Shown: in pieces, positions 24 through 19,291 of the stretch
Numbering within the stretch: the stretch's first letter is position 1
How the letters are laid out: each line of letters starts with the position of its first letter
Origin: Candidatus Omnitrophota bacterium
Lineage (GTDB): Bacteria > Omnitrophota > Gorgyraeia > Zapsychrales > Fredricksoniimonadaceae
Assembly: GCA_028865345.1 (NCBI GenBank)
Contig: JAGWKL010000007.1
Location: forward strand, 6,089 to 70,088
DNA length: 64,000 bases
Direction: 5' to 3'
Position numbers and translations under genes: made by a program
Notes under the pieces: generated by a model
What the model was told of the DNA's origin: nothing
Database searches by the model: none
What the model saw: only the letters and a program-made list of their open reading frames with translations

Positions 24-2813
24 TCACGACCCTCCGGGGCCGCTTGAGGGCGAAGAGCCGATGCTGTTGCAATCCACAAACTGGATGCAATAATCGCTGT
101 CCCCGGTCCCTGAAGAAGAAGGACAGCTCCTGGATGCCACATACCTGGCGCAGGCACGGCTTTCAACACCCAAAGGAAGCAAAGCCGAGACCGCGGCGGT
201 ACAGTTCGCCTCATTGCCATTGGCGACGGAATCAAGCTGTCCGTCGCCGTTGTCATTAAGCATAAACGCCTGGCCCAGCGCTGTCCGGTCCGTCGACAAA
301 AAGTTTCCATTTTCCCATGCCAGCCCCTGCGCTGTCTGGGGCGTGAGGCCGAATCCTATGGGCGTCGCAACCCCGTACGGCGCGTAGGCCGTAGTGGCGC
401 ACGCGCTGAAAAGATCGGAGTTTTGGTTGGTGTTGGGGTTGTTGCCGACGGCATTGGGATTGCTGAACATGAATTGCCACAAGGAACGCCCGTTGGGAAA
501 TTTAATGGAACTGCCGTGGGGCTGGTCCCAGCGCTGGACTTCAACATACACATACCCGTCACGTTGGGTGAGCTCAAAATTTTGGGTGAACCCCCAGTCA
601 GAGGTGTACGACCGGATCCACGGCAACCTGTCCTGAAATGCGCCATAGCCTTGACTGCGTCCCGGCGCATAGGCCTGGACCTTGACAAGGTGCGCGCAGC
701 CCACAGGCACCGAGTTTCCGTTACTGTCCGTGGTAGTGCACGCCGGCTGGCCGGTGGTTGACGGTTTGTCTCTCCAGCCATAAACGACCCAATTGGGCAA
801 TGCGCCGGGGGAATTTGTACTGCTCGTGCCATTCGCACGTTCGTACATGATCTGAGAGGCAGGTCCGCCATCGGCACATGCATTCCCGCTGCAAGGCTTG
901 AAGAAATTATGAAGGGCATTGTCCGCCTGGGCGGTGATGCGCTCAAGGGCCACGGCCCTGGTATAAGCGTCATTCAAATAAGCATACCTCAAAGCGAATT
1001 TCGGGGCCTCATCGGTAAACAGGGTAATATTGTCCTGCGTCCATTGGGCGAAGCTCCCCGAAGAGTTGGGGTCGCAGGATGCCGGGGCGGTGGTATACGC
1101 GGGCGGAGTGCCGCATGCCGCGTTGCTTTCAGAAGGGCATACGCAATTCCCGTTGCTGTTGCTGGGGGAACCTTTATAACACGCCAGCAGGGAGCGTCCC
1201 AGGACCGACGAAGAACACTCGCTTGGCAATGGCAGGCTCCTGGAACACGTCGAACTGCCGCATGCAACTCCACTGGCGCATTTATTTGACCCGCCGCTGC
1301 CGCAGACACTGCCGTCCGCACATCCCCCGGTCACCACATTCAGGCAGGTTTGATAATTGTAAATGGGACCGTACTTGTATTGGCCGGCCGCCCAGTCAGC
1401 ATAACTCTGCGTACAGGGAGTGCCGTCATTGCATTTATCGGCGCCTCCGCTGCCGCAGGCGCTGCCGTCTGGGCACACATTACATCTGTTGGGATCGCTG
1501 TCAAATGCAGGCGGCGATATAACGGAAGTCCCTAACACGTCAGGCTGGCACTGGTCCGGCAGGTTTGTCACGCAGCTTTTATTGACTGTCAGGGAACTCA
1601 GGCAGGCGGAATAATTGTTGGCAACCCCCGTTGCTGTTGTTATAGCCCCCGGACCCGCATTATATTGCAGGCAGGCCAGGACATGGGGCAGGTCTCCCCA
1701 ATTTCCTGTGGGGGCATTTTGGTTGATATAATATTCTTCCGTAGTGCCTGTTAAATCGGACTCTGCAGGAAGGCACCAGACAGCATTCTCAGAAAACCAG
1801 TTCTGTAAGCTGGAGGAATACTTATGGCTTACTGAACCTGCGGGTGCATAGCTGTTGGAATTAAGCCAATTTGTAATCACCGTGTTCCAGTCCTTGAGTT
1901 TATCCACCGGCGGACTGACGTAGGGATTGTAAATGCTCAACAGGCGTCCCGGGGAATTTAACTTACAGGAGTCTTTATTGCACGTACAGTCGCCTGTGCC
2001 GTTGGGACCGCTGCACACGGTGTCTCCGGCCGGGCAGCCTCCCGTGCATTGGGGGGCGATCCAGTCGGCGATCTGGTCATATTCACTGTCAAAGGTGGAA
2101 TTGGTGACATCCAGGGTTTTGGACAAAAACGCCTGGGCAAATTTATCGAAGTCCGAAAAAGTATGCAGGACACTGTTCAGGCTGGAAACGGTGCTTTGGG
2201 CAGAGGGCGGATTGGGCGGCGCCGGCGGCGGAAATGCACAGCCGGAACCGCTGCATGTGTTGTCAAACCACTCACACTCACCGTCGGGGTAGGACGATGT
2301 GCTTTCATTATACGGCCATGTCGTTGAACACATCTGGTTGTCGCCCGCTACCCAATAGTCGCCCGGACCGCTGCCCAGAGAACCGATCTGTCCATAGTAT
2401 GAAAATGTTCCGTCCAGCGCGGGATTGGAGGCATACGGGGCAGGGGGGGTGTAAAACGCCGGGTCCCCCACTTTATCGATGACGCCGTTGAATGTCGTTG
2501 ACGATGAACCCGCGCCGGCGCCGAGGTCAGCGGTTATGCTATAGGTCCCATTGGGAGCGTTTGTCCAGTCATAGGTGAAGGTATTGGTGGGGGCGCTGCT
2601 GCTGACCGAGGCCAAAACATTCCCATTATCATAGAATGTCACTTCACTGACATTGCTGTAGGTTGCGGCTGTGAGCGTGATTGTGGCCCCTGACGGATAA
2701 TTGATATAATCGCTTGACACGCAGACCGGCGTTGACGACGATGGCGTACAAGCCGCCTGCACCGGTGCCTGGGCTGAGAAAAACAAGGCCATAATCAAAA
2801 ACCAATATCGCAT
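24..2813 (-). CDS. Secreted cysteine-rich repeat protein (~929 aa), putative pilus-associated adhesin
   Basis: Track ORF 24..2984; likely true start at MRYWFLIMALFFSAQAPVQA (signal-peptide-like) 57 codons in, preceded by AAAGGAATGGGAAAT RBS-like sequence. Ser/Thr/Asn/Gly-rich with repeated C-x-DGS-x-CGSGG-x-KC-x-G-x-x-C modules. Last gene of the Tad-like locus. Confidence 0.5.
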   Translation of the reverse strand: MRYWFLIMALFFSAQAPVQAACTPSSSTPVCVSSDYINYPSGATITLTAATYSNVSEVTFYDNGNVLASVSSSAPTNTFTYDWTNAPNGTYSITADLGAGAGSSSTTFNGVIDKVGDPAFYTPPAPYASNPALDGTFSYYGQIGSLGSGPGDYWVAGDNQMCSTTWPYNESTSSYPDGECEWFDNTCSGSGCAFPPPAPPNPPSAQSTVSSLNSVLHTFSDFDKFAQAFLSKTLDVTNSTFDSEYDQIADWIAPQCTGGCPAGDTVCSGPNGTGDCTCNKDSCKLNSPGRLLSIYNPYVSPPVDKLKDWNTVITNWLNSNSYAPAGSVSHKYSSSLQNWFSENAVWCLPAESDLTGTTEEYYINQNAPTGNWGDLPHVLACLQYNAGPGAITTATGVANNYSACLSSLTVNKSCVTNLPDQCQPDVLGTSVISPPAFDSDPNRCNVCPDGSACGSGGADKCNDGTPCTQSYADWAAGQYKYGPIYNYQTCLNVVTGGCADGSVCGSGGSNKCASGVACGSSTCSRSLPLPSECSSSVLGRSLLACYKGSPSNSNGNCVCPSESNAACGTPPAYTTAPASCDPNSSGSFAQWTQDNITLFTDEAPKFALRYAYLNDAYTRAVALERITAQADNALHNFFKPCSGNACADGGPASQIMYERANGTSSTNSPGALPNWVVYGWRDKPSTTGQPACTTTDSNGNSVPVGCAHLVKVQAYAPGRSQGYGAFQDRLPWIRSYTSDWGFTQNFELTQRDGYVYVEVQRWDQPHGSSIKFPNGRSLWQFMFSNPNAVGNNPNTNQNSDLFSACATTAYAPYGVATPIGFGLTPQTAQGLAWENGNFLSTDRTALGQAFMLNDNGDGQLDSVANGNEANCTAAVSALLPLGVESRACARYVASRSCPSSSGTGDSDYCIQFVDCNSIGSSPSSGPGGS

Positions 2814-2833
2814 ATTTCCCATTCCTTTTGCCG

Positions 2834-5575
2834 CTAACTGCAAACTCCTGTGCCGAGGTTGCATGATTGTGTCGAAGTGCAACAATTGGTACTGGCGCCG
2901 CACTGGGTGGTGCCGCTGGGACACCCGCATGAGCCGCTCTGACATATTTCTTGACCCTGGCATACATGTCCGCAAGTGCCGCAATTGTTGTTATCATTCA
3001 ATGTTCCGCTGGCACAGGCACAGGCGTTGCTCTGGCATGTTTCTCCGTTTTGGCACACCTTTCCACAAGTACCGCAATTGTTGTTGTCGCCTAAATTGCC
3101 GCCGGCACATTTACATTCGCCTGTTTGGCTCCCGCTTGCCTGAGTGCCTGTAATCGTCCAGCTGGTGCCGTTAAAGGTTGTCTCGTAGCATGTTTGGCCA
3201 TTCGTGCACGCACCCGTGCCGCAGGTGACTCCGCAGGCGTCTTTGCCGCAATTGTCAATTGCAGCACAATAGGAATAATTGTTAACGATCATGGTGGTGG
3301 CATATGCGGTATATCCGCAACTATGGTCAGTCGGATTGGTGGCGCAATAGTTGGTTACAGCACCGGTTGCGCCGCCGGTATCATAAGATTGTACCTCCGA
3401 AAGAGGGGCATCGGTCGCTACAGCCGTCACGTTATAATTCCCCGCCATCGTCACTGTACAAAGCCCGGTCGTTTTGTTGGTCACACTCGTAGGGATTGCA
3501 AATTGGCCGGGATTGGTGTTGATTTGCACAATCGGAGCCGGAAACGCCGGGTTCGGCGTGAACAGGGTGTCGTCTAATGTGCTGGTGCTTCCCGTTGGAT
3601 CGGTCATATTAATATCAACCCCGGTAATGGTGCCGGGGCTGGGTTCAGAGGCTGTGGCGAGCATGCTGATTGAGGAAGAAGGTCCCGCTGTATAGATGTT
3701 CCCGCTGAAGGGCGAATTGATCACCATGGAAATGTTGGGTCCAACGACAATGGTCAGCGTGTTCGATGAAGAGCCGCTGCCGCCGGCAAGGCTGTCGGTC
3801 AGATAATTGACACAGCAATCCTCTCCCGAGCAGGAATAGGGCAGGGTCAATTGGTTTAAATCCGGAAAATCCGCGGACGAAGGAGAGTTGACTGCGGGGA
3901 CTGTGCCTCCGGAATACGTGCCTGCGACACACCAATGGTACCAGGGCTCCGGCGTCAATGTAAAATTGTTGCTTTGGGTGGTATTGATACTGTCCACCGC
4001 CGGACTGAAAAAATTCGGAGTTTTATACGCGTTTGGACTTGCCAACGGATCCGGGAATGCCGGATTGGTGTCCATCAGCCAGAAGAAGGGATAGACCCCA
4101 TTAGGGAACGCCGGTGAGGTCCCTTCGACCGTCATTCCACCCAGGGGCACTGTGGTCGGCGTTGATTGCATCAATTGCTGGTCGCGGCCGTATTGGTCCA
4201 GGAATGACAGCCCCCTGCTGTATTGTTGAAAGCCCGAATCGTAAATAAAGGGATAGGAAGAACCGTAAGGATTGTTCGATGTGCATTGCGCCGGCGCTGC
4301 CTGACCCGCATTATCCGGGTCCCCGACCAGGGCCGAACAATCCGTATTGATGTACGCGTTGGGGTTGGTGGCGCAAACATCCGGAAGGGTCCCTCCTGCG
4401 CTCACATAGGGAAGGCAGGAAGAGGGCCGCAAAGGCTTGTATGTCGTCTTTCCGTTGTCGGTGACGGCCACAGCCACCGGCTGGCAGCATGGATTGCAGT
4501 AAGGATTGCTTGTGTCCGTGCAGGAATCATTTAACTGAAAACTAAAGTCATTGTTCACCATCACCCTGCAAGAAGGTGCCGACAAGGAAGCTGAATAAGT
4601 GGTATACGCAGCGTTGCAGGAATTGCAAAGCGGATCCAACGCGACAGGCTGACCGGTATTGGGATCGGTGAGGTTACTATGCTCGTATACGTTCTGGGCG
4701 CATGTCACCTGCGCCGGTATAGGCCCTGTACAGGCAGGGTCTGCGGAATCCACGGCACAATAATCGATGCCCGCATTCGGATTGAAGCAGCTCGGGTTAA
4801 GAGGGACCCCTGTCTGGCTTGTTTTGCCATCCACGCTTCCACTGTCCGTATAATTTTGCTGGCAGGTCTGGCCGTTGATGAATTCACTCAATTGATTATA
4901 GAAAAAAACCAACTGTGGAATAAAGCCGACGTTTTTGTTCAGCATTTTCAAACGCTCGGTATAAAAAAACCCGAACCGCGAGATGGTGTCGTTGGCCCTG
5001 CCGCTGGTGACCCCGAATTTTCCATTGGCATTTTCATCGAAATAATCCGTAATATTGACCTGGTCCGTGGTCGCGCCCTGCAAAGCCGGCCCCACGGCCC
5101 CTTCATAAAACTGCTGTGTGATCGGCTGGCTTTTCTGCAACTTGTTCCATAGTTCGCACATCCCGGGCTGGATCACAGTCAACTGAAGCACCAGGGTCAC
5201 AATAGACATGACAAGGGCCAGGGTCAGGCAGGCCCCCAGAAATGTGGTCACCAGCGGAGTCGCCGATCCCCAGGAAACGATCTCTATGACTATGATGATA
5301 ATAATGACTATCACCATGATCAAATCCATCAATAAGCCGCTCATTCCCGATATCTTGTTGGTGTCCTGCAAATTCGTCTGCTTCTGCATTTCACCATAAC
5401 TGGCCACATCCGACGCAAGCAGGGATGCGGCCTGGTCGGCGTCCACGGTCAACAGGCTTTTCATCTGGGCGATGCGCCCCCAGTTGTAGGTGATGGCCAG
5501 GAAAATCAGCGCCATCGCCGATAATAAAACCAGGATGAGCGCTGTCTGTCCTTTTTTATCCGTTGTGTTCATCAT
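2834..5575 (-). CDS. Tad-domain (TadG-like) giant protein, 913 aa, with cysteine-rich C-terminal modules
   Basis: N-terminus KKGQTALILVLLSAMALIFLAITYNWGRI matches the Tad/TadG N-terminal TM-anchor pattern. Long Asn/Thr/Ser/Cys-rich extracellular region. C-terminus has duplicated NNNCGTCGxVCQxGExCQS Cys modules. Confidence 0.5.
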   Translation of the reverse strand: MMNTTDKKGQTALILVLLSAMALIFLAITYNWGRIAQMKSLLTVDADQAASLLASDVASYGEMQKQTNLQDTNKISGMSGLLMDLIMVIVIIIIIVIEIVSWGSATPLVTTFLGACLTLALVMSIVTLVLQLTVIQPGMCELWNKLQKSQPITQQFYEGAVGPALQGATTDQVNITDYFDENANGKFGVTSGRANDTISRFGFFYTERLKMLNKNVGFIPQLVFFYNQLSEFINGQTCQQNYTDSGSVDGKTSQTGVPLNPSCFNPNAGIDYCAVDSADPACTGPIPAQVTCAQNVYEHSNLTDPNTGQPVALDPLCNSCNAAYTTYSASLSAPSCRVMVNNDFSFQLNDSCTDTSNPYCNPCCQPVAVAVTDNGKTTYKPLRPSSCLPYVSAGGTLPDVCATNPNAYINTDCSALVGDPDNAGQAAPAQCTSNNPYGSSYPFIYDSGFQQYSRGLSFLDQYGRDQQLMQSTPTTVPLGGMTVEGTSPAFPNGVYPFFWLMDTNPAFPDPLASPNAYKTPNFFSPAVDSINTTQSNNFTLTPEPWYHWCVAGTYSGGTVPAVNSPSSADFPDLNQLTLPYSCSGEDCCVNYLTDSLAGGSGSSSNTLTIVVGPNISMVINSPFSGNIYTAGPSSSISMLATASEPSPGTITGVDINMTDPTGSTSTLDDTLFTPNPAFPAPIVQINTNPGQFAIPTSVTNKTTGLCTVTMAGNYNVTAVATDAPLSEVQSYDTGGATGAVTNYCATNPTDHSCGYTAYATTMIVNNYSYCAAIDNCGKDACGVTCGTGACTNGQTCYETTFNGTSWTITGTQASGSQTGECKCAGGNLGDNNNCGTCGKVCQNGETCQSNACACASGTLNDNNNCGTCGHVCQGQEICQSGSCGCPSGTTQCGASTNCCTSTQSCNLGTGVCS

Positions 5576-5835
5576 TGGCTCGAGTTCCCGTTAGTAATGC
5601 TTCCGTGATAAACCGCGGACATCGGCAAAAAATAATAATCGTCTTGAGAGTTCAACTCATTCGACGGATCCAGGCTTTTGGTCAGTGATATGTCCTGGGC
5701 CACGCGCCGGTTGGCCAGATCCAGCCCCGCCCAGCGGAAAACCATCACCAGGCCGTAAACTATGAACATGATCACCACCACCGCGAAGGTGAATTCAATG
5801 GTCGACTGAGCTTTGGTGTCCCGTACGTTCATCAA
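5572..5835 (-). CDS. TadE-like pseudopilin (87 aa)
   Basis: N-terminus TKAQSTIEFTFAVVVIMFIVYGLV is a TadE/TadF-like prepilin-like hydrophobic segment with conserved E. 4-nt overlaps with both neighbours. Confidence 0.5.
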   Translation of the reverse strand: MMNVRDTKAQSTIEFTFAVVVIMFIVYGLVMVFRWAGLDLANRRVAQDISLTKSLDPSNELNSQDDYYFLPMSAVYHGSITNGNSSQ

Positions 5836-7817
5836 TTCCCTACCTTGTACCGCCCTGATGTGTTTGTCGCCCAGAAATGCCCGCGCAAGTCTTCGATGCG
5901 GCTGCGGACAAAAATCTTGTTCTGGGAAAGATCATAACATGTCGAGGCAATGTTGGTCTGAGAACTAAAACAGTTGTTGGTTATTCCGTCGACACAAACT
6001 TCCACAGGGTTGGGGGTTTTTCCGTCATTGCCCACCGTGGCAAGCGGCGTCGTTCCGTTGCAAAACCGCCCGGTATTATTGCTCAGCTGGATGACCCGCT
6101 GTATCAGGTCGATCGAGTCCTTTTTGTTTTGGCTGCGCACAAACTGGTCGGTTTCAGGGTTATACATTTTCCCATCCTGGATCAACAAATACGTCCCCCC
6201 GCGGTTATCGGTGGCATTGGAGCTGTTCTTGGTAAAGGTAAACACCTGGGCGTTGGCCTGCAAACCGGGCTGCGGACCGCAGGAATTGGCGTCCCAAGCC
6301 CCGTCAATGTCTCCACCATCCGGATCTTCATAAGAAACCACCGGATAGCCGTTTGAGTCCGTGGAAAGATTATAAATGGTGACTTCCTTCAGCCTTCCGT
6401 CTATATCATAGGTCGGATAAACATGGTTGGAACTGCTTAGCCCGATCTCTGCCGCCGAGGTCCCTGCCGTGGCAGCCCATTGCCAGGCAACGTAGGCGCG
6501 CATGCAACTGCCGGGAGGATTGCATCCCGGATTGGGGAATTGATTTATCACGCCCGCCACCGATGTCGATGTTGCTCCATTGCTCCCATAGACCCCCATG
6601 CGCAAAAGATCATACTGCATGACCCCATTGATATTGGTGGATGCTCCAAGGCCGTCGGTGGTGGGATTGCCCCAATAATCAAGCAAAGGCATGTCCGTGG
6701 ACAGTTCTTTATTCATACAAGCTGAAGTGCCGTGCGCAGTACAAGTGGGGGCCGAAGTGCTGAAGGTCAAATTCGAAGAATTGGCCGACCCTCCCGCCCC
6801 GCCGGGATTGGCCACCAGGGTATAAAACAATTTGTATTGCCTGCTGCCCTGCTCGATAATGCCCTCGATCGCCGCTAAATATCCCACAGCCTGTTGCGCA
6901 GTGAGGTGAAATACATTTTCATAAAGCCCTTCAAACGTCGTCCACGGCGTTTGATTCCATGATGCGTTGACCGTCGCTTGAGAGGTAGCTTCATCGCACT
7001 TGCTGGTTGTCGTAGGTGAAATGACATGGGCATTGGCCAGTTCCGTGAAAATAGTACAGGCATTGTTGGCCTCTTGCAGCTCTCTTCCTGCCGTGGTGGT
7101 CGCGGTTATCGGCGCTACCGGAGGATCGTTGGTAACAAGCGCGCTTTCCTTAAGAATGCTCTGGCCTCCCCACTCCCTTTGATTGCGGCAGGTCTGGTTC
7201 ATTTTGCACTGGGCCTCGGCTTTTTGCTGGCAGTCCTGCGGATTTCCGCCGGCCGTCAGGCAATCTTCCTGCTCCTGAGCGGAAGATATCGGCTGGCTGT
7301 TTTTATCGCACATAGCGGTACCGCCCTGGCCCGGCGGATAAATGGTTTTCCCGGCAACATAAGAAGCCATGGTAAACGGGAAATGCTGCCCGTCGATATA
7401 CACATCCATGATGGGCAAACTATTGTCGATATCGGAGGGACTATTGTTATCGATGGGATAAAGAAGGTTATAGGAAAAGGTTCCCGAACCGGAGACCATG
7501 AATGGTGTGCGGTCCAAAGCCCCGTATTTGCCGAAACCGGGAACAAGTCTGTCTTCTACAAAAAGCACCGAGGCGCTGTTATGCGCGGTGACCTGCGGGC
7601 TCATGCCGGGATTGGCCTTGGAATCGTTCCACGAAGCCAGCATGGCCATGCGCATGGCCTTAAAACTGATGTCCTGCTGATAGCCGTTGCTCACAGCAGT
7701 GCGGATGATCGTCCCCAAAATAAAAATGAGGATGGCCCCGAACACGGCAAGCTCGGTGACGGCCTGTCCCGCCGCGGGTGCGGGGCCAGACGCTTTTTGA
7801 AGGTCTCGCTTGGACAT
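5832..7817 (-). CDS. TadG/TadE-like large pseudopilin (~662 aa)
   Basis: Track ORF 5832..7886. Start taken at MSKRDLQ (ATG at 7815-7817, ATGA overlap with the stop of the upstream pilin gene, AGGTAGGG RBS). N-terminus AGQAVTELAVFGAILIFILG is a TadE-like motif. Confidence 0.5.
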   Translation of the reverse strand: MSKRDLQKASGPAPAAGQAVTELAVFGAILIFILGTIIRTAVSNGYQQDISFKAMRMAMLASWNDSKANPGMSPQVTAHNSASVLFVEDRLVPGFGKYGALDRTPFMVSGSGTFSYNLLYPIDNNSPSDIDNSLPIMDVYIDGQHFPFTMASYVAGKTIYPPGQGGTAMCDKNSQPISSAQEQEDCLTAGGNPQDCQQKAEAQCKMNQTCRNQREWGGQSILKESALVTNDPPVAPITATTTAGRELQEANNACTIFTELANAHVISPTTTSKCDEATSQATVNASWNQTPWTTFEGLYENVFHLTAQQAVGYLAAIEGIIEQGSRQYKLFYTLVANPGGAGGSANSSNLTFSTSAPTCTAHGTSACMNKELSTDMPLLDYWGNPTTDGLGASTNINGVMQYDLLRMGVYGSNGATSTSVAGVINQFPNPGCNPPGSCMRAYVAWQWAATAGTSAAEIGLSSSNHVYPTYDIDGRLKEVTIYNLSTDSNGYPVVSYEDPDGGDIDGAWDANSCGPQPGLQANAQVFTFTKNSSNATDNRGGTYLLIQDGKMYNPETDQFVRSQNKKDSIDLIQRVIQLSNNTGRFCNGTTPLATVGNDGKTPNPVEVCVDGITNNCFSSQTNIASTCYDLSQNKIFVRSRIEDLRGHFWATNTSGRYKVGN

Positions 7818-8134: not shown

Positions 8135-8149
8135 AGGCCTTGGTCCTTA

Positions 8150-8506: not shown

Positions 8507-8515
8507 TCAGTCCTT

Positions 8516-8935
8516 TCATGTCGCACAACCGGTCCCGTCACTGCAACACGGCGGCGGATTGGAACTGCTGCATACCGGAGGTAATTGGTGGCTGATGGAG
8601 GATATGTTGCTTGTGTCATTCACGGAACTGATATAGACCGCTCCCAGTTCCCCTGCGCTGCCGTTTGTTATTCCTTGATGATTGTCTGAATTCCGTTGCA
8701 CATCCGAGAAGGTCTGCATGTAATACGGTTCATATCCCCAGGAAACCCCGTTGGAAGCGGCCTGGCAATTGACATCGCAGGCATTGGCCGCCATCTCGAT
8801 CGCAAAGTTCCTGGCATCATGGATCCGCGCCTCAAAGGCCCTCCTCACCAGCACGGTCATAGCTGTCAGGGCCGCAACCACTATGAAGAAAACCATGACA
8901 TGCTCTGCCAAAATCGCTTGACCTTTGTCATTCAT
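8516..8935 (-). CDS. flp: Flp-type pilin paralog 6 (~139 aa) with Cys-rich C-terminus
   Basis: Track ORF 8516..8962 begins at a TTG. Better start is ATG at 8935 (MNDKG|QAILAEH) with AAGGTGAGG RBS. Motif has H instead of Y. C-terminus PPVCSSSNPPPCCSDGTGCAT. Shares ARIHDA and YEPYYMQ motifs with the pilin at 9613..9981. Confidence 0.55.
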   Translation of the reverse strand: MNDKGQAILAEHVMVFFIVVAALTAMTVLVRRAFEARIHDARNFAIEMAANACDVNCQAASNGVSWGYEPYYMQTFSDVQRNSDNHQGITNGSAGELGAVYISSVNDTSNISSISHQLPPVCSSSNPPPCCSDGTGCAT

Positions 8936-10733: not shown

Positions 10734-11855
10734 CTAATCTTTTAAAATTTCGACCTTAACCAGCCTATTTTGGTCATCATGCAGATACATCGCATTTAAT
10801 TTCTCTGCGGCTTCATTGAGCATGGTAATATTCTCATAACTATTTGTCGTTAATATGTTTATTATATTAATTTCACTGTTGACCTTGTCGAATCCTTTCA
10901 ACTTTAATATATTATCCATAACATCATCGTTTACATTATGTTGTGTAAAAAAAATGTCTTTTGCTCTCTCTGAAACATTCTTTTTATAGCTCTCCACAAA
11001 TACAATATCTTTTAACATAAAAACTCTTTTACACTCCACAATTTCATCGAAATATGCTATAACATTGTCTTTGTAATCCACTATCAAAATTTTTGTAATT
11101 TTGAGCCCGGCTTGAGCATCCATGCAAGATTTAAAAAGCATTTCATCCGAAACTCTATGAACTACCAGCGGCCGGATATTATTAATAAGCCCGTCCACTG
11201 CTTCCATGATGCAACGTTCAATGGGGAGCGGCAGATCAATAAAGACCTCCTTGTTGTTTTCCAAAACAACCTTGATCCCTTTACAGTATGTCAGGCAATA
11301 TTCCCAATCCGTTCCCTTGACGTTCTCTTCTGAGAAAATTCCTAAATCCCAAAGTGCCGCCCTTAAAAAAACCCTTCCGGCCCCGTCGTATTCCGCAGAA
11401 ATCTCAAAACTTTCGGGCTTGATTTGCCGTTCTTCTGTAATCGTCGGGGCTTTTTCTTCTTCCGTCGATCCGGGGCCGGAGGACGGAGGCTCTTTATGAA
11501 CGTTTAGATCCTGGCCGCCCGCCTCCATTTCCTGAGAAACGCCTTTTGCCGAATCCGGCAGTACGCTGACTTCAGGAATAATTGTTTCCGGCAGCAATTT
11601 GACTTGGGAAAGGCTGGCCTGAATCTGCCTCTTCTTCTCTTGAGGTATTTCAAACTTATTTTTTGGCTTACGGCCGCGAGGCGTCATGATGCCCGCCTCT
11701 TTGAGCACATCATGGACCGACGATTTGGAAAGTTTAAGTCCGAACTTTTGAGAGGCTGATTCAGCTAATTGGCGGCAGGAAGCAAGAGGGTTGGCTTGTC
11801 GCTGGTTTATGATGAATCCGACAACCTCTTCCTTTAACTTATAGGTAACACCCAT
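10734..11855 (-). CDS. Hypothetical protein with N-terminal HTH-like domain (~373 aa), AT-rich
   Basis: Track ORF 10734..11951. The first 32 codons are AT-junk overlapping the XRE gene, so start taken at MGVTYKLKEEVVGFIINQRQANPLASCRQLAE (HTH-like, ~70 aa). Then an acidic low-complexity linker and an unrecognised ~230-aa C-terminal domain. GC content far below surrounding genes. Confidence 0.4.
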   Translation of the reverse strand: MGVTYKLKEEVVGFIINQRQANPLASCRQLAESASQKFGLKLSKSSVHDVLKEAGIMTPRGRKPKNKFEIPQEKKRQIQASLSQVKLLPETIIPEVSVLPDSAKGVSQEMEAGGQDLNVHKEPPSSGPGSTEEEKAPTITEERQIKPESFEISAEYDGAGRVFLRAALWDLGIFSEENVKGTDWEYCLTYCKGIKVVLENNKEVFIDLPLPIERCIMEAVDGLINNIRPLVVHRVSDEMLFKSCMDAQAGLKITKILIVDYKDNVIAYFDEIVECKRVFMLKDIVFVESYKKNVSERAKDIFFTQHNVNDDVMDNILKLKGFDKVNSEINIINILTTNSYENITMLNEAAEKLNAMYLHDDQNRLVKVEILKD

Positions 11856-12525: not shown

Positions 12526-12861
12526 TCATAGCCGGACCTGGTCACCGATCCGTGTTTGAGAAGCAATGATGGTCCCCGCCGGCAATTCGATGGCGTAGGA
12601 TGCCCGGAAGAATACCGGCGACAGGCGGAAAGGTTTGATCCCCTCGCAAAGCCCCACCACCTTGTCCTTCCGGTCGCAAAAGATCACATCAATAGGAAAT
12701 TTCATAAAAAACATATGGATGGATTCGCAATGGGGAATGACCAGGGCGTGATTCAGGGGGAGTTGGGTCCTTCCAAGCAATCCCTTCGAACGCTGCCAGA
12801 AATTCCGGGCGGTTTCGACGGAGGAGGCAATAACGGTGTCGCGGGTTGCGTTACAGATCAT
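12526..12861 (-). CDS. DUF192 (COG1430) family protein (111 aa)
   Basis: Sequence family resemblance only. 4-nt overlap with the upstream CpaE-CpaF gene suggests translational coupling. Confidence 0.45.
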   Translation of the reverse strand: MICNATRDTVIASSVETARNFWQRSKGLLGRTQLPLNHALVIPHCESIHMFFMKFPIDVIFCDRKDKVVGLCEGIKPFRLSPVFFRASYAIELPAGTIIASQTRIGDQVRL

Positions 12862-15429: not shown

Positions 15430-17235
15430 TTACGAAGCAAAGCCCTTCTCCGCCGGAGATTGACCGTCAGGGTTAAAAACAATAGGAACCGTAAATTCAA
15501 GTTCTCGCTGGTCCATCCCCGGGCTAAAGGCGGCAAAAGGAGCGGCTGATTTAGCGGCCTGCATGGCGTCCTGATCCAGGACATTGCTTCCCGAAGACTG
15601 GGCCACGTCAATAGAATCCAGGGAGCCGTCTTTAAGGATATGCAGCTTCAATTTGACCGTGCCTCCCAGCTCGGCGCCGCCCACCGGCCGGGGATAAATG
15701 AGGGTCCTTGAAATCTTTTCCTGGACCATGCGTGCATACGCTGTCGCGGCCGGGAGCCCTTTCAAATTCTCAACGGGTAGGGGTGCCGGCGCTGAATAGG
15801 CCGCGGTGTATTGCGGCGCCAATGGAAAAGAAGGAGAATACGTCTCCGGATTTTCCGAGGGAGCGGTAGGAGCCGGCTTGGCCGGCCAATCGGAAACGAT
15901 GGGCGCGTGTTCATACCTCGAAACTATTTCATTCCAGGAACTGCGCTCCTCGGACGTCGGCATCACCAGTTCTTTTTGCGCGTATTTCGTTTGCGTCAGC
16001 ACCGTCGGCGTCAAAATAATGACCATTTCCGTATTGGCATCCGCGGGCTCGCTTTTGTTTCTGAAAAGCCCCCCTAAAAGCGGAATTTTAGATAAAAACG
16101 GCACATCGGTCTCATTCACGCTGTCTTCATATTTGATCAGCCCCGCCAGGGCAATGGTCTGCTTGTTGTCCATCAGCAGGTCCGTCGAAGCTGTCCGGGT
16201 GACAAAGGCCACGTTGCCCCCATTGCTGGATATGGGAGTGGCTGAATCCACGTCCCGGATGTCCACGTTTAACTGCACATCTATTTTTCCGTCTTGAATG
16301 GTCGGAGTGACCGACAGGTTGACGCCGTATTGGGCATAGGTCGTGTTATTGGTCAGGGTGCTGCCAGTGGTGCTCACTGTTGTGGATTGGATGGGGATCT
16401 CGCCGCCTACCAGGAAACTGGCAGGCTTGCCGCTTTCCACCACCAACCGCGGCTTGGAAATCAGCCTGGCCTTGCCTTCCTTGACCAAGGCATTCACCGT
16501 GGCTTCCAGCGACGTAGTGCGCATGAAGTGCCCTATCTTGAACAAATCCTTGAACTTGTCTCCCGTGGGAAGGGTTTCTCCATAGTTAAGGTTCACCTGC
16601 CCGCTGTTGCTTGTCCCGGTTGAGCCCGTTGTGCCCGAAGAAGAAGTCCCCCACGATATCCCCAATTCTCTTTCCAGGGTCACGTTGATCTCCACGATCT
16701 GCATGTCCACCTGGATCAATTCGTTGTTCTTTTCTTTCTCGACCAGATTCAACAAATTATCGCTATACGGCGTCAGGACGTCCGCCATCCGGTTTTTGTT
16801 GTCTTCAGACAAGGAGCCTGTGAGCACCACCTTGCCTATATCGAGATTTATATCTTCGGAAACCCCTTTGACGCCGGCTTCCTTCAGGAGCTCCTGCACA
16901 AGGGCCTTGAGGGCGTTGAGGTCCTGGGCGGCCACGCGAACCTTGACGCTGTGTTTGCCGCCCGCATCCCAGAAAAACAGGACCGTTGAGCCGGCTTTCT
17001 TGGCTATCAGGGAAACTTTATCGTTCTGAACGTCTGAAATGTCCGCCACCGAGGGGTCGGTCACCGAGACCCGGGTCAACCCGCTGGCAGGGACCGACTG
17101 GATGTCGCCCACCACCATGTCAATAACGTCTGCCGACTGCATATCATCGTCGGCAGATAACGGCGGCATATATGCCACTGATACCGCAAGGCCAAACGCG
17201 ACGATAAAAATTTTCCGTAAAAGGTTGGATTTCAT
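15430..17235 (-). CDS. cpaC: CpaC/RcpA-type secretin with C-terminal Pro-rich linker and TonB_C-like domain (601 aa)
   Basis: N-terminal pilus-formation domain. Secretin C-terminus (DVPFLSKIPLLGGLFRNK..TEMVIILTPTVL) ends near residue 415. Then PAKPAPTAPSENPETYSPSFPLAPQ linker and YARMVQEKISRTLIYPRPVGGAELGGTVKLKLHILKDGSLDSIDVAQSSGSNVLDQDAMQAAKSAAPFAAFSP resembling a TonB C-terminal domain. Confidence 0.7.
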   Translation of the reverse strand: MKSNLLRKIFIVAFGLAVSVAYMPPLSADDDMQSADVIDMVVGDIQSVPASGLTRVSVTDPSVADISDVQNDKVSLIAKKAGSTVLFFWDAGGKHSVKVRVAAQDLNALKALVQELLKEAGVKGVSEDINLDIGKVVLTGSLSEDNKNRMADVLTPYSDNLLNLVEKEKNNELIQVDMQIVEINVTLERELGISWGTSSSGTTGSTGTSNSGQVNLNYGETLPTGDKFKDLFKIGHFMRTTSLEATVNALVKEGKARLISKPRLVVESGKPASFLVGGEIPIQSTTVSTTGSTLTNNTTYAQYGVNLSVTPTIQDGKIDVQLNVDIRDVDSATPISSNGGNVAFVTRTASTDLLMDNKQTIALAGLIKYEDSVNETDVPFLSKIPLLGGLFRNKSEPADANTEMVIILTPTVLTQTKYAQKELVMPTSEERSSWNEIVSRYEHAPIVSDWPAKPAPTAPSENPETYSPSFPLAPQYTAAYSAPAPLPVENLKGLPAATAYARMVQEKISRTLIYPRPVGGAELGGTVKLKLHILKDGSLDSIDVAQSSGSNVLDQDAMQAAKSAAPFAAFSPGMDQRELEFTVPIVFNPDGQSPAEKGFAS

Positions 17236-17240: not shown

Positions 17241-18089
17241 TTAAAGTTCCCTGCCGCCTCTAAAAATCTGGATCATGGGCTTGCTTTCTTCCGGCTTGGC
17301 TGTGGGCACTTCATCCGGGTTCTCAAGATCTAGCCCCTGGTTTTTCAGGACATAGTCCGCCAGGGTCTTCCATGTGTCTGCTTTGACCATTCGATGTTCC
17401 ATATCATCAGGTGAACGCAACGCCAGGTCCAGCTTGCCGTTTTTATCCGCAAATTCCAAAAGTCCTGCTTCCTGAGGACTCACCGCAAAAGTGATTTTCA
17501 GGGAATTGGCCGCCTGCTGCTTATCATAGTCGCCCAAGTCTTCCTCATTGGTATTAACGGCCAGGACCTGCAGGTCCTGGAAAACCATCGCCGTCACGGT
17601 TTGCTTATTGGCATATTGCGACGGGACGCTCATCTCGCCGATCACATCCACAAAATCCCCCGGATTGATCATGCCCCCCACGGCGGCGAGCGAATCGATC
17701 TTCACCGTCACGGCGCGCATGCCCACCGGCGTCCTTAAGGCCAGCGACGGCTTGTGGGCTTCTTTTTTGACACTCACCTGCGTCTGCGGCCGCATCTTAG
17801 ATATTTGCTGCTCGGAAATCTTCAGCGCGGCGATTTGTGTCTTTAATTGCTGTTCCTCCTGGCTTTTTTCCCGTTGCATTTCCTGCGCCAGTTGGGCCAT
17901 TTGCTGCTGGTCTTGCTGCTGGATCGCGGAGACCATTTCCTTTTCTTTGGAGGCGTACTGTTCAGCCAGGGCCTGGGTCTTGTTGTTAATCGCAGTTTGG
18001 ACGTAATTGCTGGCCAAAAACACCGCCACCAGCCCTAAGGCCAAAGCGCCGAGGATAATGAAAAGTTGCTTTTTGTTTTCGAAAGGCAA
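17241..18089 (-). CDS. cpaB: Flp pilus assembly protein CpaB/RcpC (282 aa)
   Basis: N-terminal TM (LFIILGALALGLVAVFLA), Gln-rich coiled-coil, SAF-like segment GMRAVTVKIDSLAAVGGMINPGDFVDVIG. Confidence 0.65.
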   Translation of the reverse strand: MPFENKKQLFIILGALALGLVAVFLASNYVQTAINNKTQALAEQYASKEKEMVSAIQQQDQQQMAQLAQEMQREKSQEEQQLKTQIAALKISEQQISKMRPQTQVSVKKEAHKPSLALRTPVGMRAVTVKIDSLAAVGGMINPGDFVDVIGEMSVPSQYANKQTVTAMVFQDLQVLAVNTNEEDLGDYDKQQAANSLKITFAVSPQEAGLLEFADKNGKLDLALRSPDDMEHRMVKADTWKTLADYVLKNQGLDLENPDEVPTAKPEESKPMIQIFRGGREL

Positions 18090-18116: not shown

Positions 18117-19139
18117 TTACCGGCCCGTCTGGCTTGGCTGACCGACAACCTGGTCAATAAGCGTTTTGTTGTACTCGGGTTTATACTTTTCAGCCAGTTC
18201 GTTAAGGTGCTTTAACATCACCTCTTGTTGTTTTTGCTGGGTCAAGAAATAAATGATCTGGTCTTTATAATCGGTAAAAGGTTTCAGGACGCCTCCCGTC
18301 TTGGAATCGACCTTAACGATGTAATAGCCTTGCGGCCCCTTGAAAACGCCGCTGACATCCCCGGGGCCCAAATTGGCAATGGCTGTTTGCATGGCTTCAA
18401 AGGGCGCTTCTCCCGTGACGAACGGCTTTATTTTTCCCCCGACAGCCGCGTCGGACGCCTTGGATTGGGACCGGGCAAGCTGCGCAAAATCGCCGCCCTG
18501 CAGCACTTGAACCAAAATAGTTTTGGCCGTGGCTTCATCCGGGGCCACGATCTCACTGACATTCCATGTAACGGGCGTGGTCAAGTCAGATTTGTGGGCA
18601 TCATAATATGCCCTGGCATCGGATTCGGTGGCGGCCACATTCCTGGTCAGGCGGCTGACCACTTCCTGGACCATCAGCGTCCTGCGGAAATCCCTGACGG
18701 AATCCTTGATGGACTGGCTGTCACCGGCCCCGGAATCCTGCGCTTCCCGGACCAAAAGTTCCTGACGTACAAGCTGGTCCAAAACATAACTTCTGACCTT
18801 GGCATCGCTTTCCTTAAAACTTTGTTTCATGCCGGCAAGCTGCTGTTTTAAAAGGTCCAAGCGGTCATTGAATTCCTGCTGGGTCAATGTCCAATCGCCG
18901 ATGCGCACCAAAGCGTCGCCGGGTAAAGGTTCTTGGGCAACGGGCGTGCTCTTGGCAACAACTACAGGGGAAACCGGAGTGACGGGAGCGGCGGGAACGA
19001 CAGGAGCCTGTTGTTGGGAAGCTTCCTGCTTTTTACTGCCCAGCCCCAACAAATTCTGTATCTGGTCGCAACCGGTCAAAAAGACCAGCCCGGCTATCAA
19101 ACACAGAGGCCCGTACATTTTAATTGCGGGTCTTTTCAT
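18117..19139 (-). CDS. PpiC/parvulin-type peptidyl-prolyl isomerase lipoprotein (SurA/PrsA-like, 340 aa)
   Basis: Lipobox LVFLTGC. Parvulin-like GPQGYYIVKVDSK and an N-terminal chaperone-like region. First gene of the minus-strand block. Confidence 0.55.
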   Translation of the reverse strand: MKRPAIKMYGPLCLIAGLVFLTGCDQIQNLLGLGSKKQEASQQQAPVVPAAPVTPVSPVVVAKSTPVAQEPLPGDALVRIGDWTLTQQEFNDRLDLLKQQLAGMKQSFKESDAKVRSYVLDQLVRQELLVREAQDSGAGDSQSIKDSVRDFRRTLMVQEVVSRLTRNVAATESDARAYYDAHKSDLTTPVTWNVSEIVAPDEATAKTILVQVLQGGDFAQLARSQSKASDAAVGGKIKPFVTGEAPFEAMQTAIANLGPGDVSGVFKGPQGYYIVKVDSKTGGVLKPFTDYKDQIIYFLTQQKQQEVMLKHLNELAEKYKPEYNKTLIDQVVGQPSQTGR

Positions 19140-19262
19140 TCATTCCTCCTCAAATGTCCTTCAAGTATACCTGCTTTTTTTAAAAAAGCAAGGTCCCGGG
19201 CCTGATTCGCCCGTCGGATTTAAGATTTTTTTGTTGTAACCCATTCTCTCTCAATAAATAAA

Positions 19263-19291
19263 ATCATATATGAAGATTTTATGAGGGTCAA
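19263..19291 (-). promoter_or_regulatory. Candidate sigma70-like promoter for the Tad-like operon
   Basis: On the minus strand TTGACC -17 nt- TATGAT. It is ~115 nt upstream of the PPIase start, in a 227-nt AT-rich gap. Confidence 0.3.

Follow-up and report, generated by a model that had tools for sequence, protein, structure and literature searches.

A probable Omnitrophota version of the Tad pilus machine with a fused TadZ-TadA ATPase and a TonB_C-bearing secretin

Gene content and order

A 19-kb block on the minus strand of the window (the 64-kb stretch of DNA analysed here, from a Candidatus Omnitrophota MAG) carries genes in the order PPIase, rcpC, rcpA-TonB_C, small repeat protein, tadZA fusion, DUF192, XRE and HTH protein. 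Nine flp-like genes come next, interspersed with three genes for large pilin-like proteins and one for a secreted Cys-rich protein. The operon ends with tadB and tadC, behind which lies a giant C39-domain gene (Table 1). The last three and a half genes of the locus lie past the left edge of the window. Pfam searches of each protein upheld the block and most of the gene calls made in a preliminary description of this DNA, including its assignment as a divergent Tad/Flp-type locus. The Tad parts recognised in this manner are RcpC, Secretin with pil_N, ParA/AAA_31 with T2SSE, and two single-domain T2SSF genes.

Table 1. Features of the locus in operon order. Positions are those of the window unless the near-identical contig L004 is named; a slash marks the predicted prepilin cleavage site.
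Feature	Position	Strand	Evidence or remark
PpiC-type PPIase (SurA/PrsA-like) lipoprotein	18117..19139	-	first gene of locus
RcpC/CpaB periplasmic protein, N-terminal TM anchor	17241..18089	-	Pfam RcpC 3e-24
RcpA/CpaC-type secretin, Pro/Ala-rich linker, C-terminal TonB_C	15430..17235	-	
Small repeat ORF, 103 aa	15129..15440	-	sits in rcpB position
TadZ-TadA (CpaE-CpaF) fusion ATPase, 721 aa	12858..15023	-	
DUF192 protein, 111 aa, no signal peptide	12526..12861	-	Pfam DUF192 3.7e-20
XRE-family HTH regulator, 92 aa	11939..12217	-	Pfam HTH_3 1.5e-13
HTH protein, 373 aa from Met33 of 405-aa ORF	10734..11855	-	
Sigma-70-like promoter candidate	10658..10686	-	upstream of first pilin gene
p1, Flp-type prepilin, 51 aa (mature form 41 aa)	10349..10504	-	IKA/QNLIEY + hydrophobic helix
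p2, pilin-like, 82 aa	10028..10276	-	PF04021 5.1e-6; KRG/QITVEY
p3, pilin-like, 122 aa	9613..9981	-	KKG/QHFAEY; Flp_Fap E=0.0095
p4, pilin-like, 112 aa	9236..9574	-	KRG/QSFLEY; positional orthologues in L008/L011
p5, pilin-like, 65 aa	8969..9166	-	PF04021 9.7e-6; RKG/QSLVEY
p6, pilin-like, 139 aa, 6 Cys	8516..8935	-	DKG/QAILAEH; L008 orthologue 136 aa
p7, pilin-like, 118 aa	8150..8506	-	RNA/QTIVEY; orthologues in L008/L011
p8, pilin-like, 105 aa	7817..8134	-	IRG/QTILEY; orthologues in L008/L011
Pilin-like protein, 661 aa, 16 Cys, TadE/F/G-like N-terminus	5832..7817	-	AAG/QAVTEL + hydrophobic helix
Pilin-like protein, 86 aa, TadE-like N-terminus	5572..5832	-	TKA/QSTIEF; orthologues 75-95 aa
913-aa protein, 50 Cys	2834..5575	-	sequence features
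Secreted Cys-rich protein, 929 aa, 44 Cys	24..2813	-	Sec signal peptide; Ig-like Big_7 1.9e-6
Ninth pilin, 115 aa, 6 Cys	L004 15811-16158		near-identical contig
tadB, 286 aa	L004 16182-17042		T2SSF 1.3e-17
tadC, 303 aa	L004 17057-17968		T2SSF 4e-18
Giant C39-domain gene	L004 18838+		Peptidase_C39 3.1e-7; after tadC

The PPIase matches Rotamase_2 (4.4e-19), Rotamase and SurA_N_2/3 in Pfam, and its N-terminus ends in a lipobox (...LTGC) when read from the sequence. Its gene is kept at the same position in relatives, and the protein likely acts in the periplasm as a chaperone of the secretin, the pilins or the Cys-rich proteins. RcpC is present in all relatives. The secretin is 601 aa long if translation starts at the ATG that gives it a signal peptide (579 aa in the NCBI call) and contains T2SS-T3SS_pil_N (2.4e-11, residues 35-101), Secretin (7.2e-39, 249-413) and TonB_C (5.4e-13, 514-588) domains, the last of which bears out the fusion proposed earlier. 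TonB_C is found on 38/38 Omnitrophota secretins, but on 0/27 from other phyla.

The small repeat ORF, already noted in the preliminary description, combines a hydrophobic, Cys-containing N-terminus with 11-aa ‘xEKEFxP’ repeats, includes a 33-bp tandem repeat at 15166-15245, and has no Pfam match. Locus L012 has an orthologue of 87 aa that carries these repeats and a signal peptide, and the gap between the secretin and ATPase genes is just 1-30 nt in most relatives. The ORF is lineage-specific.

The ATPase fusion was likewise confirmed, as CbiA/AAA_31/ParA (residues 4-236) and T2SSE (5.8e-57, residues 364-640) domains reside within one ORF. The ParA/MinD-type domain is without the receiver-like domain usually found at the N-terminus and is connected through a linker to a full TadA secretion ATPase. 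Unfused TadZ proteins align solely via their C-terminal ~240 residues, so the ARD is missing here. The Walker A/B and His-box residues are invariant. NCBI names the protein ‘Flp pilus assembly complex ATPase component TadA [Candidatus Omnitrophica]’, clusters of ~715-725 aa under the name TadA [Candidatus Omnitrophica] number at least 120, and the TadZA protein of a Bdellovibrionota MAG (739 aa) aligns with the window ATPase from end to end. Both the fused ATPase and the secretin-TonB_C are found in all 38 Omnitrophota loci where both genes are readable, and the gene order is kept in relatives down to 47-62% ATPase identity.

The DUF192 gene is translationally coupled to the ATPase gene, and most Omnitrophota loci have a DUF192 gene behind the fusion ATPase. 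In 17 of 45 loci from other phyla, it lies behind tadC. Next is a region originally viewed as an AT-rich regulatory island with XRE and HTH genes, a description that holds only in part. Most of it is one conserved locus gene, with low GC in 23/23 relatives, which encodes the 373-aa HTH protein. In this Omnitrophota-specific component of most Omnitrophota loci, a disordered linker separates a paired/Tc3-like HTH at the N-terminus from a C-terminal alpha/beta domain of ~220 aa, for which we found no structural match. The protein probably regulates the pilin genes. Only the XRE gene is lineage-specific, with orthologues solely in L012 and the near-identical contigs and none in L008 or L011. The promoter candidate (TTGACA-17-CATACT plus an extended TG, 10/12 matches) is a consensus match alone.

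Platform genes and prepilin peptidase

The canonical Tad/Cpa order is flp-tadV-rcpCAB-tadZABCDEFG in A. actinomycetemcomitans and cpaA-F in Caulobacter. We considered whether the locus represents a remodelled Tad system without linked TadB/TadC that depends on platform genes elsewhere in the genome, as the preliminary description proposed. The 64-kb window contains no phmmer match to TadB or TadC and no T2SSF gene, and the slot behind the ATPase is occupied by DUF192 and HTH genes. However, the absence of TadB/TadC, although true of the window, is an effect of its edge. A ninth pilin gene begins with an ATG at position 22 on the minus strand and runs off the left edge, such that positions 22..1 (ATGAGAACAGGGAATAAAAAAG) are its first 22 nt. 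In the near-identical contigs, this gene comes after that for the 929-aa protein and is directly followed by tadB and tadC, and then by the giant C39-domain gene. The two platform genes start ~370 bp beyond position 1, on the same strand, in three such contigs, and are placed likewise in relatives. Given these two T2SSF genes in the continuing operon, the platform is present and has merely moved to the 3′ end. The proposal that it is encoded elsewhere is therefore refuted, and we assign it almost no probability.

The reported absence of TadV stands. No TadV or linked A24 peptidase is present in the window or at any Omnitrophota locus compared. Prepilin peptidases are frequently unlinked and shared between systems, and pilD (K02654) is listed for some Omnitrophota genomes.

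Pilins and large Cys-rich proteins

All eight small genes at 7817-10504 share the motif [KR][GA]/Q-x-x-x-E-[YF] followed by a hydrophobic helix, and the original count of eight Flp-type pilin genes is sustained, although only two (p2 and p5) exceed a Pfam threshold, that of PF04021 (Class_IIIsignal). Every Flp_Fap match among them falls below threshold, including that of p1 (E=0.0016). This class-III/Flp N-terminal motif is common to 12 proteins of the locus. Orthologues of p1 (49-51 aa) stand first in the pilin arrays of relatives, and p1 is our candidate for the major pilin. The suggestion that the locus is specialised to display multiple pilin variants is not supported, as for seven of the nine the best match is clear and occupies the same position in relatives whose ATPase is just 62-71% identical. 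For example, p3 shares 61% identity with a 122-aa positional orthologue in L008. The two shortest pilins, p2 and p5, have less specific matches at the same early positions. Judging from these sequence comparisons, the nine pilins look like old, distinct subunits rather than recent variants.

The labels TadG-like, TadE-like and Tad-domain given previously to the three larger pilin-like proteins were not confirmed as given. The 661-, 86- and 913-aa proteins of the window have no match to TadE (PF07811) or Tad (PF13400), even at E<=1, but these are the top families among the orthologous N-termini, and some orthologues do match. The 86-aa protein of the window matched no HMM. The 661-aa protein, which has no Pfam or NCBIfam match, is conserved at both ends in orthologues of 451-508 aa and is a candidate large minor pilin.

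The Cys-rich giant proteins noted previously are real. The first helix of the 913-aa protein is pilin-like but has no Glu5. The protein also contains two more TM helices and a Cys-rich ectodomain of ~780 aa with NNNCGTCGxxC repeats. Its 59 homologues (525-1398 aa; all Omnitrophica where source names are given) conserve G9, Q10 and the N-terminal ~230 residues. There is no fold match, and given a poor AF2 model, no adhesin-like fold is demonstrable. On sequence grounds, we consider the protein to be a TadG-like membrane-anchored or tip component. With its two extra TM helices and no Glu5, it may stay in the membrane rather than enter the fibre.

In relatives, a single ~1150-aa protein is found where the window encodes the 913- and 929-aa pair, a split that is seen in three independent assemblies. 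The N-terminal part of the 1149-aa protein of L008 aligns to the 913-aa protein, and the 929-aa protein is homologous to the C-terminal half of the single protein (residues 212-384 and 509-891 align to 448-585 and 778-1132 in L008). These large Cys-rich proteins may be adhesins, as the preliminary description suggested.

Relation to known systems and proposed role

Given that the platform genes are located just past the window edge, the locus is an ordinary member of a known system. The block is the Omnitrophota version of the Tad (type IVc, Flp) pilus machine, and it is complete; we give this reading, together with the adhesive mechanism proposed below, a probability of roughly 0.7. As in canonical Tad/Cpa systems, there is RcpC, an RcpA-type secretin with pil_N, TadZ- and TadA-type ATPase domains, paired TadB/TadC, a G/XXXXEY Flp pilin, and pilin-like analogues of TadE/F/G. 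In contrast to those systems, TadZ lacks the receiver-like domain and is fused to TadA, the secretin bears TonB_C, and the locus has no tadV, tadD or rcpB homologue. The pilin and pseudopilin genes lie between tadA and tadB rather than flanking the locus, small pilins number nine where one to three are usual, and the pseudopilin analogues are far larger and Cys-rich. Two pilins pass PF04021 and 11 of 12 proteins carry Gln at +1, as do PF04021-type prepilins. These are points in common with archaeal Epd (EppA-dependent) pili and class III signal peptides, and Denise et al. (2019) derive Tad from an Epd-like archaeal system. However, the Omnitrophota system is that of a diderm bacterium with secretin, RcpC and TadZ, and no archaeal-type components were seen.

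This type of locus is already published for Omnitrophota, as a Tad complex by Seymour et al. (2023, PMC10066038) and as a secretion locus by West-Roberts et al. (2023, bioRxiv 10.1101/2023.11.21.568195). Seymour et al. report that co-cultured V. archaeovorus expresses a ‘complete Tad complex’, and that Omnitrophota TadB/C group with Bdellovibrionales. The coordinates that they give for strain LiM (CP019384.1:12382-29832), ~12-30 kb into the chromosome record, suggest that the locus is origin-proximal there, as here. West-Roberts et al. describe a conserved locus, read as type II-like, that precedes giant genes and contains gspD/E/F, rcpC, a Rotamase_2 PPIase gene that corresponds to the PPIase of this position, and many class III signal peptide genes. 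We find no difference of substance between the published loci and this one, which share phylum, an adjacent giant gene and the parts list (Rotamase_2 PPIase, rcpC, secretin, secretion ATPase, GspF-family platform, class III genes). The published accounts of Omnitrophota loci that we examined make no mention of the TadZ-TadA fusion, secretin TonB_C, DUF192, HTH protein or missing peptidase, and we found no description in the literature of the secretin-TonB_C fusion, the Omnitrophota-specific HTH protein with its unmatched C-terminal domain or the ancient orthologous pilin set.

The West-Roberts interpretation raises the possibility that the machine is functionally type II-like, wherein a short pseudopilus formed by the numerous pilin-like proteins pushes Sec-exported cargo through the secretin, without any long fibre for adhesion. 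The 929-aa protein, which carries a Sec signal but lacks a pilin N-terminus, would then be cargo, as might portions of the neighbouring giant protein. A secretin, a GspE-family ATPase and a GspF-family platform are indeed shared with type II secretion (Gsp) systems, the twelve pilin-like genes are reminiscent of the GspG-K set, and a giant C39-domain gene lies behind tadC. However, every identifiable part is of the Tad rather than the Gsp type, including RcpC, the TadZ domain and two single-domain T2SSF genes in place of one two-domain GspF. Furthermore, no GspC/L/M-like genes were seen at the locus, and the pilins are Flp-type rather than GspG-type, with a 41-residue, Flp-sized major pilin carrying G/XXXXEY. 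The equivalent of the 929-aa protein in relatives is joined to a pilin-like N-terminus, which favours a machine component over free cargo. We therefore regard a secretion function as unlikely.

The closest studied relative is the Tad system of Bdellovibrio bacteriovorus (Tesseur et al. 2026, bioRxiv 10.64898/2026.07.08.737194), in which TadZA lacks the ARD, TadV is absent and Flp1 is processed by PilD. Bdellovibrio requires this system to attach to and invade its prey, which also argues against a secretion function. The two systems share the ARD-less TadZ fused to TadA, tad loci without TadV, and a predatory or host-dependent lifestyle. In Bdellovibrio, however, the genes are scattered across several loci with tadC apart, whereas Omnitrophota have one operon-like block minus the peptidase. 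The RomR link has no known counterpart for the Omnitrophota locus, and the secretin-TonB_C fusion and HTH protein are Omnitrophota features unreported for Bdellovibrio Tad.

A Flp-type pilus could instead serve DNA uptake, as reported for Micrococcus luteus, where natural transformation depends on Flp pili (PMC4322843), and type IV filaments in general are used in this manner. We consider competence very improbable, since no comEA, comEC, dprA or other competence genes were seen at the locus or in the window, and since the large Cys-rich ectodomains, the adjacent giant surface protein and expression during prey attachment favour adhesion.

For an adhesive Tad pilus, a mechanism can be proposed by inference from the Tad/Cpa and Bdellovibrio systems. 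Prepilins would insert into the inner membrane, and an A24 peptidase encoded elsewhere would cleave after [KR][GA] to leave Gln1 and Glu5. This enzyme is likely the PilD of the type IVa pilus system, which Omnitrophota possess as well; PilD performs this task in Bdellovibrio, where tadV is likewise absent. The TadZA fusion would dock onto the TadB/TadC platform, where ATP hydrolysis would lift the 41-residue p1 from the membrane into the fibre. Assembly may be primed by the mid-sized pilins together with the 86-, 661- and 913-aa proteins, all of which would sit at or near the tip, and the 913-aa protein with its split-off 929-aa partner would give a disulfide-rich surface that binds host or prey cells. 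RcpC would bridge the platform and the secretin, through which the fibre would exit, and by pure inference the Pro-rich linker and TonB_C would probably anchor the pore, either to peptidoglycan or to a partner in the periplasm. The PPIase lipoprotein would chaperone exported parts, and the XRE and HTH proteins would govern the pilin promoter. In keeping with the literature, such a machine, jointly with the adjacent giant protein, would allow these ultra-small cells to attach to their host or prey cells.

Locus composition and the platform proteins

All of the long ORFs between positions 24 and 19139 of the window lie on the minus strand, and the Pfam assignments of their products (see the table) are those of a divergent Tad locus. 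The preliminary description of this DNA was largely right about what the sequence contains, given that the Pfam domains, the shared N-termini of the pilins, the Cys-rich proteins and the CpaB assignment, which corresponds to an RcpC match, are all borne out. Both of the protein fusions it proposed are also real. In one, the Secretin, pil_N and TonB_C domains reside in a single protein, and the TonB_C part of this protein is present in 38 of 38 Omnitrophota loci in which both genes are readable, whereas the 27 Tad secretins examined in other phyla all lack it. The other, which joins ParA/AAA_31 and T2SSE domains in one 721-aa ORF, is described in the next section.

The rcpB position between the secretin and ATPase genes is occupied by a small ORF whose N-terminus is hydrophobic and contains Cys, and which has five repeats of 11 residues ('xEKEFxP'). 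An 87-aa orthologue carrying the same repeats and a signal peptide is present in the nearest relative (locus L012), and the ORF is absent elsewhere among the loci compared. This ORF may encode a pilotin-like protein peculiar to the lineage, or an unrelated secreted protein of small size. Among the locus proteins, no Pfam match was obtained that would suggest a TadD/RcpB-type pilotin or lipoprotein.

The most striking element of the preliminary description was the absence of the TadB/TadC platform. This statement is accurate for the 64-kb window, in which phmmer searches find neither T2SSF nor A24 genes, but it is wrong as biology. Exact-sequence look-ups with the ATPase and the 86-aa pilin-like protein recovered three near-identical contigs from the MAGs GCA_028870875.1, GCA_028866185.1 and GCA_028871075.1 (31 mismatches in 15.8 kb relative to the window), and in all three the gene for the 929-aa protein is followed by four more genes on the same strand. 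The first of these codes for a ninth pilin of 115 aa, whose ATG is located at window position 22 and whose gene leaves the window at the left edge. The tadB and tadC genes come after it, and encode T2SSF proteins of 286 aa (1.3e-17) and 303 aa (4e-18). Because these two genes follow the ninth pilin in the near-identical contigs, the platform is present at the 3' end of the operon, approximately 370 bp outside the window. Thus, the main result of the current analysis is a correction: the Tad machine is complete, and its missing platform is an effect of the window boundary.

The fourth gene comes after an AT-rich gap, which measures 870 bp in the near-identical contig L004, and is called at 2187 aa with a Peptidase_C39 domain at its start. 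This gene runs past the fetched locus and, judging from the record coordinates, probably past the end of the contig as well. Giant genes of the 'Archaeovorin' type, as described by West-Roberts et al., are its match.

Features of the Tad locus, its surroundings and the loci compared with it. Positions are those of the window unless another locus is named.
Feature	Position	Strand	Evidence or remark
PpiC-type PPIase, SurA-like N-terminal region and lipobox	18117-19139	-	Pfam
RcpC/CpaB	17241-18089	-	Pfam PF16976 RcpC, 3e-24
Secretin with T2SS-T3SS_pil_N and C-terminal TonB_C	15430-17235	-	Pfam Secretin 7.2e-39, pil_N 2.4e-11
Small repeat ORF	15129-15440	-	33-bp tandem repeat
TadZ-TadA, 721-aa single ORF	12858-15023	-	Pfam ParA/AAA_31 residues 4-236, T2SSE 364-640
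DUF192	12526-12861	-	Pfam
HTH_3 (XRE) regulator	11939-12217	-	Pfam
HTH protein, weak transposase-type HTH	10734-11951	-	Pfam; 373 aa from Met33
Eight small pilin genes	7817-10504	-	followed by 661-, 86- and 913-aa proteins
929-aa protein, Sec signal peptide and Ig-like Big_7 domain		-	last gene, ends block
TadB	L004 16182-17042		T2SSF
TadC	L004 17057-17968		T2SSF
C39 giant gene	L004 18838-20261		Peptidase_C39
TadZ-TadA fusions outside Omnitrophota	L050 9611-11830; L058 10001-12070; L074; L085		Pfam, both domains in L050 and L058
DUF192 with tad, other phyla	L053, L058, L059, L061, L063, L066, L069-L073, L076, L080, L082, L085, L088, L090		Pfam confirmed two
Origin region	22122-29923 and 30627-34150		
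gyrA, gyrB		-	Pfam
dnaN	27316-28410	-	by eye
dnaA	28577-29923	-	by eye
PilZ-domain genes	51996-52388, 52351-52764	+	1.1e-11 and 1.6e-11
6S RNA	47341-47506	+	52.4 bits, gathering score 46.4
tRNA genes, cluster of three	37014-37291	+	
tRNA gene	21979-22052	-	
tRNA gene	54040-54110	+	
Likely envelope-stress module	54276-55764	+	
457-aa ORF	49142-50515	-	
523-aa ORF	49454-51025	+	

The fused ATPase and the prepilin peptidase

The TadA part of the fusion matches T2SSE with an E value of 5.8e-57, and the family alignment shows no variation in its Walker A (GGTGAGKTT), Walker B or His box. Unfused TadA proteins of other phyla align to residues ~290-716 of the fusion. In contrast, unfused TadZ aligns through its C-terminal ~240 residues alone, and therefore the fusion is without the ~130-aa N-terminal receiver-like domain (ARD) of that protein.

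For a survey of this arrangement, one genome per species was scanned, and the ORFs of the resulting 80 loci were called and compared with the window proteins. Wherever both genes could be read in Omnitrophota (38 loci), the TadZ-like and TadA parts form a single ORF of ~717-766 aa; one short contig (L014) shows them split into two ORFs. The usual state in other phyla is adjacent tadZ (~390-420 aa) and tadA (~450 aa) genes, followed directly by tadB and tadC. 'Full-length' tblastn matches could be taken to mean that the fusion is widespread outside the phylum, but this was rejected when a check of reading frames showed mostly adjacent, separate tadZ and tadA genes. True ARD-less single-ORF fusions beyond Omnitrophota are few, and are found in MAGs of Bdellovibrionota (739 aa), Eremiobacterota (689 aa) and Acidiferrales (733 aa). 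The window ATPase has at least 120 close cluster representatives of 715-725 aa, and the name given by NCBI to its relatives is 'Flp pilus assembly complex ATPase component TadA [Candidatus Omnitrophica bacterium]'.

The lack of a TadV/CpaA prepilin peptidase in view, also pointed out from the sequence, holds well beyond the window. A screen for motifs and TM segments, combined with phmmer searches with seven A24 queries (four Pfam-confirmed Peptidase_A24), revealed no linked Peptidase_A24 gene, either in the window or in the Omnitrophota loci that were retrieved, while in other phyla the same searches detect a peptidase in 21-25 loci. It is common for prepilin peptidases to be encoded away from the pilus genes and to serve more than one system, and TadV is a possible 'loner' (Denise et al. 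2019). As a hint only, a KO table gives pilD (K02654) for some Omnitrophota genomes, with no K02278 among the entries listed. It is most likely that the pilus is matured by an unlinked peptidase.

Pilins, Cys-rich proteins and the AT-rich stretch

The eight small proteins (p1 to p8) and the 661-, 86- and 913-aa proteins have a common N-terminal design, wherein a short basic leader ending in [KR][GA] precedes Gln, Glu at +5, Tyr or Phe at +6 in most, and then ~20 hydrophobic residues, which is the G/XXXXEY pattern of Flp pilins. Both this motif and the protein size fit p1 and the seven others. The proposed eight Flp-type pilins are thus all Flp-like by motif; the Flp_Fap scores are below threshold (E values of 0.0016 and 0.0095), and the threshold of PF04021 (class III signal peptide) is passed by two of the small proteins only.

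Positional orthology argues against the proposal that the locus is specialised to display multiple pilin variants, and we have rejected the idea that the eight pilins are recent variants. Comparison with relatives that share 62-71% identity in the ATPase gives seven of the nine pilins a clear best match at the same array position, whereas p2 and p5, the shortest two, are matched less specifically at the same early positions. The pilins look like old, distinct and ordered subunits. A good match to a sigma-70-like promoter consensus is found upstream of p1 (51 aa, 41 of them mature), which is likely to be the major pilin.

The TadE, TadG and Tad labels assigned to the larger pilin-like proteins hold for the families but not for the window's own copies. 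Searches with TadE (PF07811), Tad (PF13400) and NCBIfam models gave no match at E<=1 or better to the proteins of 661, 86 and 913 aa. When 31 N-termini from relatives, drawn from these three families, were scanned, PF13400 (seven hits, best 1.6e-5) and PF07811 (five hits, best 4.5e-4) were the two most frequent matches. NCBIfam also offered no useful match for any protein that lacks a Pfam assignment.

The giant Cys-rich proteins are real, with 50 Cys residues in the 913-aa protein and 44 in the 929-aa protein. There are 59 homologues of the former, ranging from 525 to 1398 aa, and Omnitrophica is the sole source among the named ones. A single 1149-aa protein of locus L008 aligns to the 913-aa protein through its N-terminal part and to the 929-aa protein through its C-terminal part, such that the two genes look like halves of one ancestral protein, the second of which would have gained its own signal peptide in this lineage. 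Three independent assemblies show this split. Beyond the pilin-like helix, the 913-aa protein contains two more TM helices, and it is without Glu5. It may remain membrane-anchored, as is presumed for TadG. Its AlphaFold model is poor (pLDDT 56.6), and no structural match was found for its fold.

The AT-rich 10-12 kb stretch was previously considered an XRE/HTH regulatory island. We rejected its origin as an insertion because the larger gene is a component conserved phylum-wide whose GC content is below that of the ATPase gene in 23 of 23 loci, although the XRE gene is indeed found only in the closest relatives. The HTH protein encoded by the larger gene is homologous to the proteins of 493 and 619 aa that relatives encode at this place in the locus, and its 95 homologues have named sources that are all Omnitrophica. 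The predicted model is confident (mean pLDDT 85, ~97 for the C-terminal domain), and consists of a paired/Tc3-like HTH joined through a disordered linker to an alpha/beta domain of 220 residues. This last domain has no PDB match, and a fold search with the protein matches nothing beyond the HTH.

DUF192 follows the ATPase here. In other phyla it is located in or next to tad loci in 17 of 45 cases, usually right after tadC, with hosts that include Acidobacteriota, Eremiobacterota and Dehalococcoidia. DUF192 is therefore a recurrent companion of tad loci in several phyla, and we found no literature linking it to Tad pili.

Genomic surroundings, affiliation and function

The Tad locus adjoins the replication origin, where gyrA, gyrB, dnaN and dnaA all reside on the minus strand and the cumulative GC skew reaches its minimum near 28-29 kb. 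An AT-rich stretch (GC 35-42%) near the origin carries yidC (Pfam) and parA/parB-like genes (by eye). The coordinates of the Tad complex of V. archaeovorus, 12-30 kb into the chromosome record, suggest an origin-proximal site there too. Two tandem PilZ-domain genes are present ~33 kb from the Tad locus; PilZ genes adjoin Omnitrophota giant genes (West-Roberts 2023, bioRxiv 10.1101/2023.11.21.568195) and are located near Bdellovibrio tad genes (bioRxiv 10.64898/2026.07.08.737194). The window also includes a 6S RNA and five tRNA genes, of which three form a cluster at 37.0-37.3 kb. A likely envelope-stress module is composed of a gene that looks ECF-sigma-like by eye, an anti-sigma factor with zf-HC2 and a Metal_resist/LTXXQ (Spy/CpxP-like) periplasmic protein. 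A 457-aa ORF that looks spurious lies antisense to a 523-aa ORF, whose product begins with a TM segment and includes a region that is coiled and charged.

The source organism is named Candidatus Omnitrophica/Omnitrophota, and Tad complexes occur across this phylum, with TadB/C proteins that group with those of Bdellovibrionales (Seymour et al. 2023, PMC10066038). In V. archaeovorus LiM, the 'complete Tad complex' (CP019384.1:12382-29832) is expressed in co-culture with prey (Seymour 2023, PMC10066038). A secretion locus of more than 10 genes, comprising gspD, gspE, gspF, rcpC, a Rotamase_2 PPIase gene and many small class III signal peptide genes, has been reported to precede giant genes phylum-wide (West-Roberts 2023, bioRxiv 10.1101/2023.11.21.568195). 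Our locus resembles it point by point, with all parts found here, including the downstream giant gene.

By its components the machine is a Tad system, having a TadA-type ATPase, RcpC, an RcpA/CpaC secretin with pil_N and a TadB/TadC pair. A Type II (Gsp) system would instead have one two-domain GspF, where this locus has two single-domain T2SSF proteins, and GspG-type pilins, where those found here are Flp/class III; moreover, no locus protein has a family match to GspC, GspL or GspM. Tad descends from an archaeal Epd-like system (Denise et al. 2019), which fits the class III signal matches of the pilins. We conclude that the locus is a further member of the published Omnitrophota system, and that our analysis is a refinement rather than the report of a new system. 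The earlier interpretation of a remodelled Tad-like machine survives in so far as the Tad locus is divergent, carries real fusions and lacks a linked peptidase, but not in its absent platform.

The closest studied analogue is the Tad machine of Bdellovibrio bacteriovorus, which exhibits the same two oddities, an ARD-less TadZA fusion and no TadV in its tad loci (2026 preprint, bioRxiv 10.64898/2026.07.08.737194). In that organism, the Tad pilin Flp1 is matured by the PilD of the type IVa system, and Tad is essential for prey attachment and invasion (bioRxiv 10.64898/2026.07.08.737194). The most likely function of the Omnitrophota locus is to form a Tad pilus with which the cells attach to their hosts or prey, as the Bdellovibrio findings and the expression in co-culture would lead one to expect. 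The main rival explanation is that the same machine has a secretion role, which accords with the description of the West-Roberts locus as a secretion locus preceding giant genes. We consider it improbable that the Omnitrophota Tad derivative is more than an adhesive pilus and is a dedicated device for the display or export of disulfide-rich proteins and the neighbouring giant protein. In that case, the phylum-universal TonB_C part of the secretin would link the pore in the outer membrane with either the cell wall or an energised partner in the inner membrane, and the phylum-specific HTH protein would serve as controller. The type IV filament superfamily would then have a branch that is new in function and connected with the giant proteins of ultra-small predators.

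We found no prior description of the secretin-TonB_C fusion, the HTH protein with its unmatched domain, the ordered pilin set or the DUF192 association, and these are modest additions to a known system. Omnitrophota loci of this type are linked in the literature to host or prey attachment and to giant surface proteins, and the points that emerge from the survey are testable leads on the attachment organelle of ultra-small predatory or parasitic bacteria.
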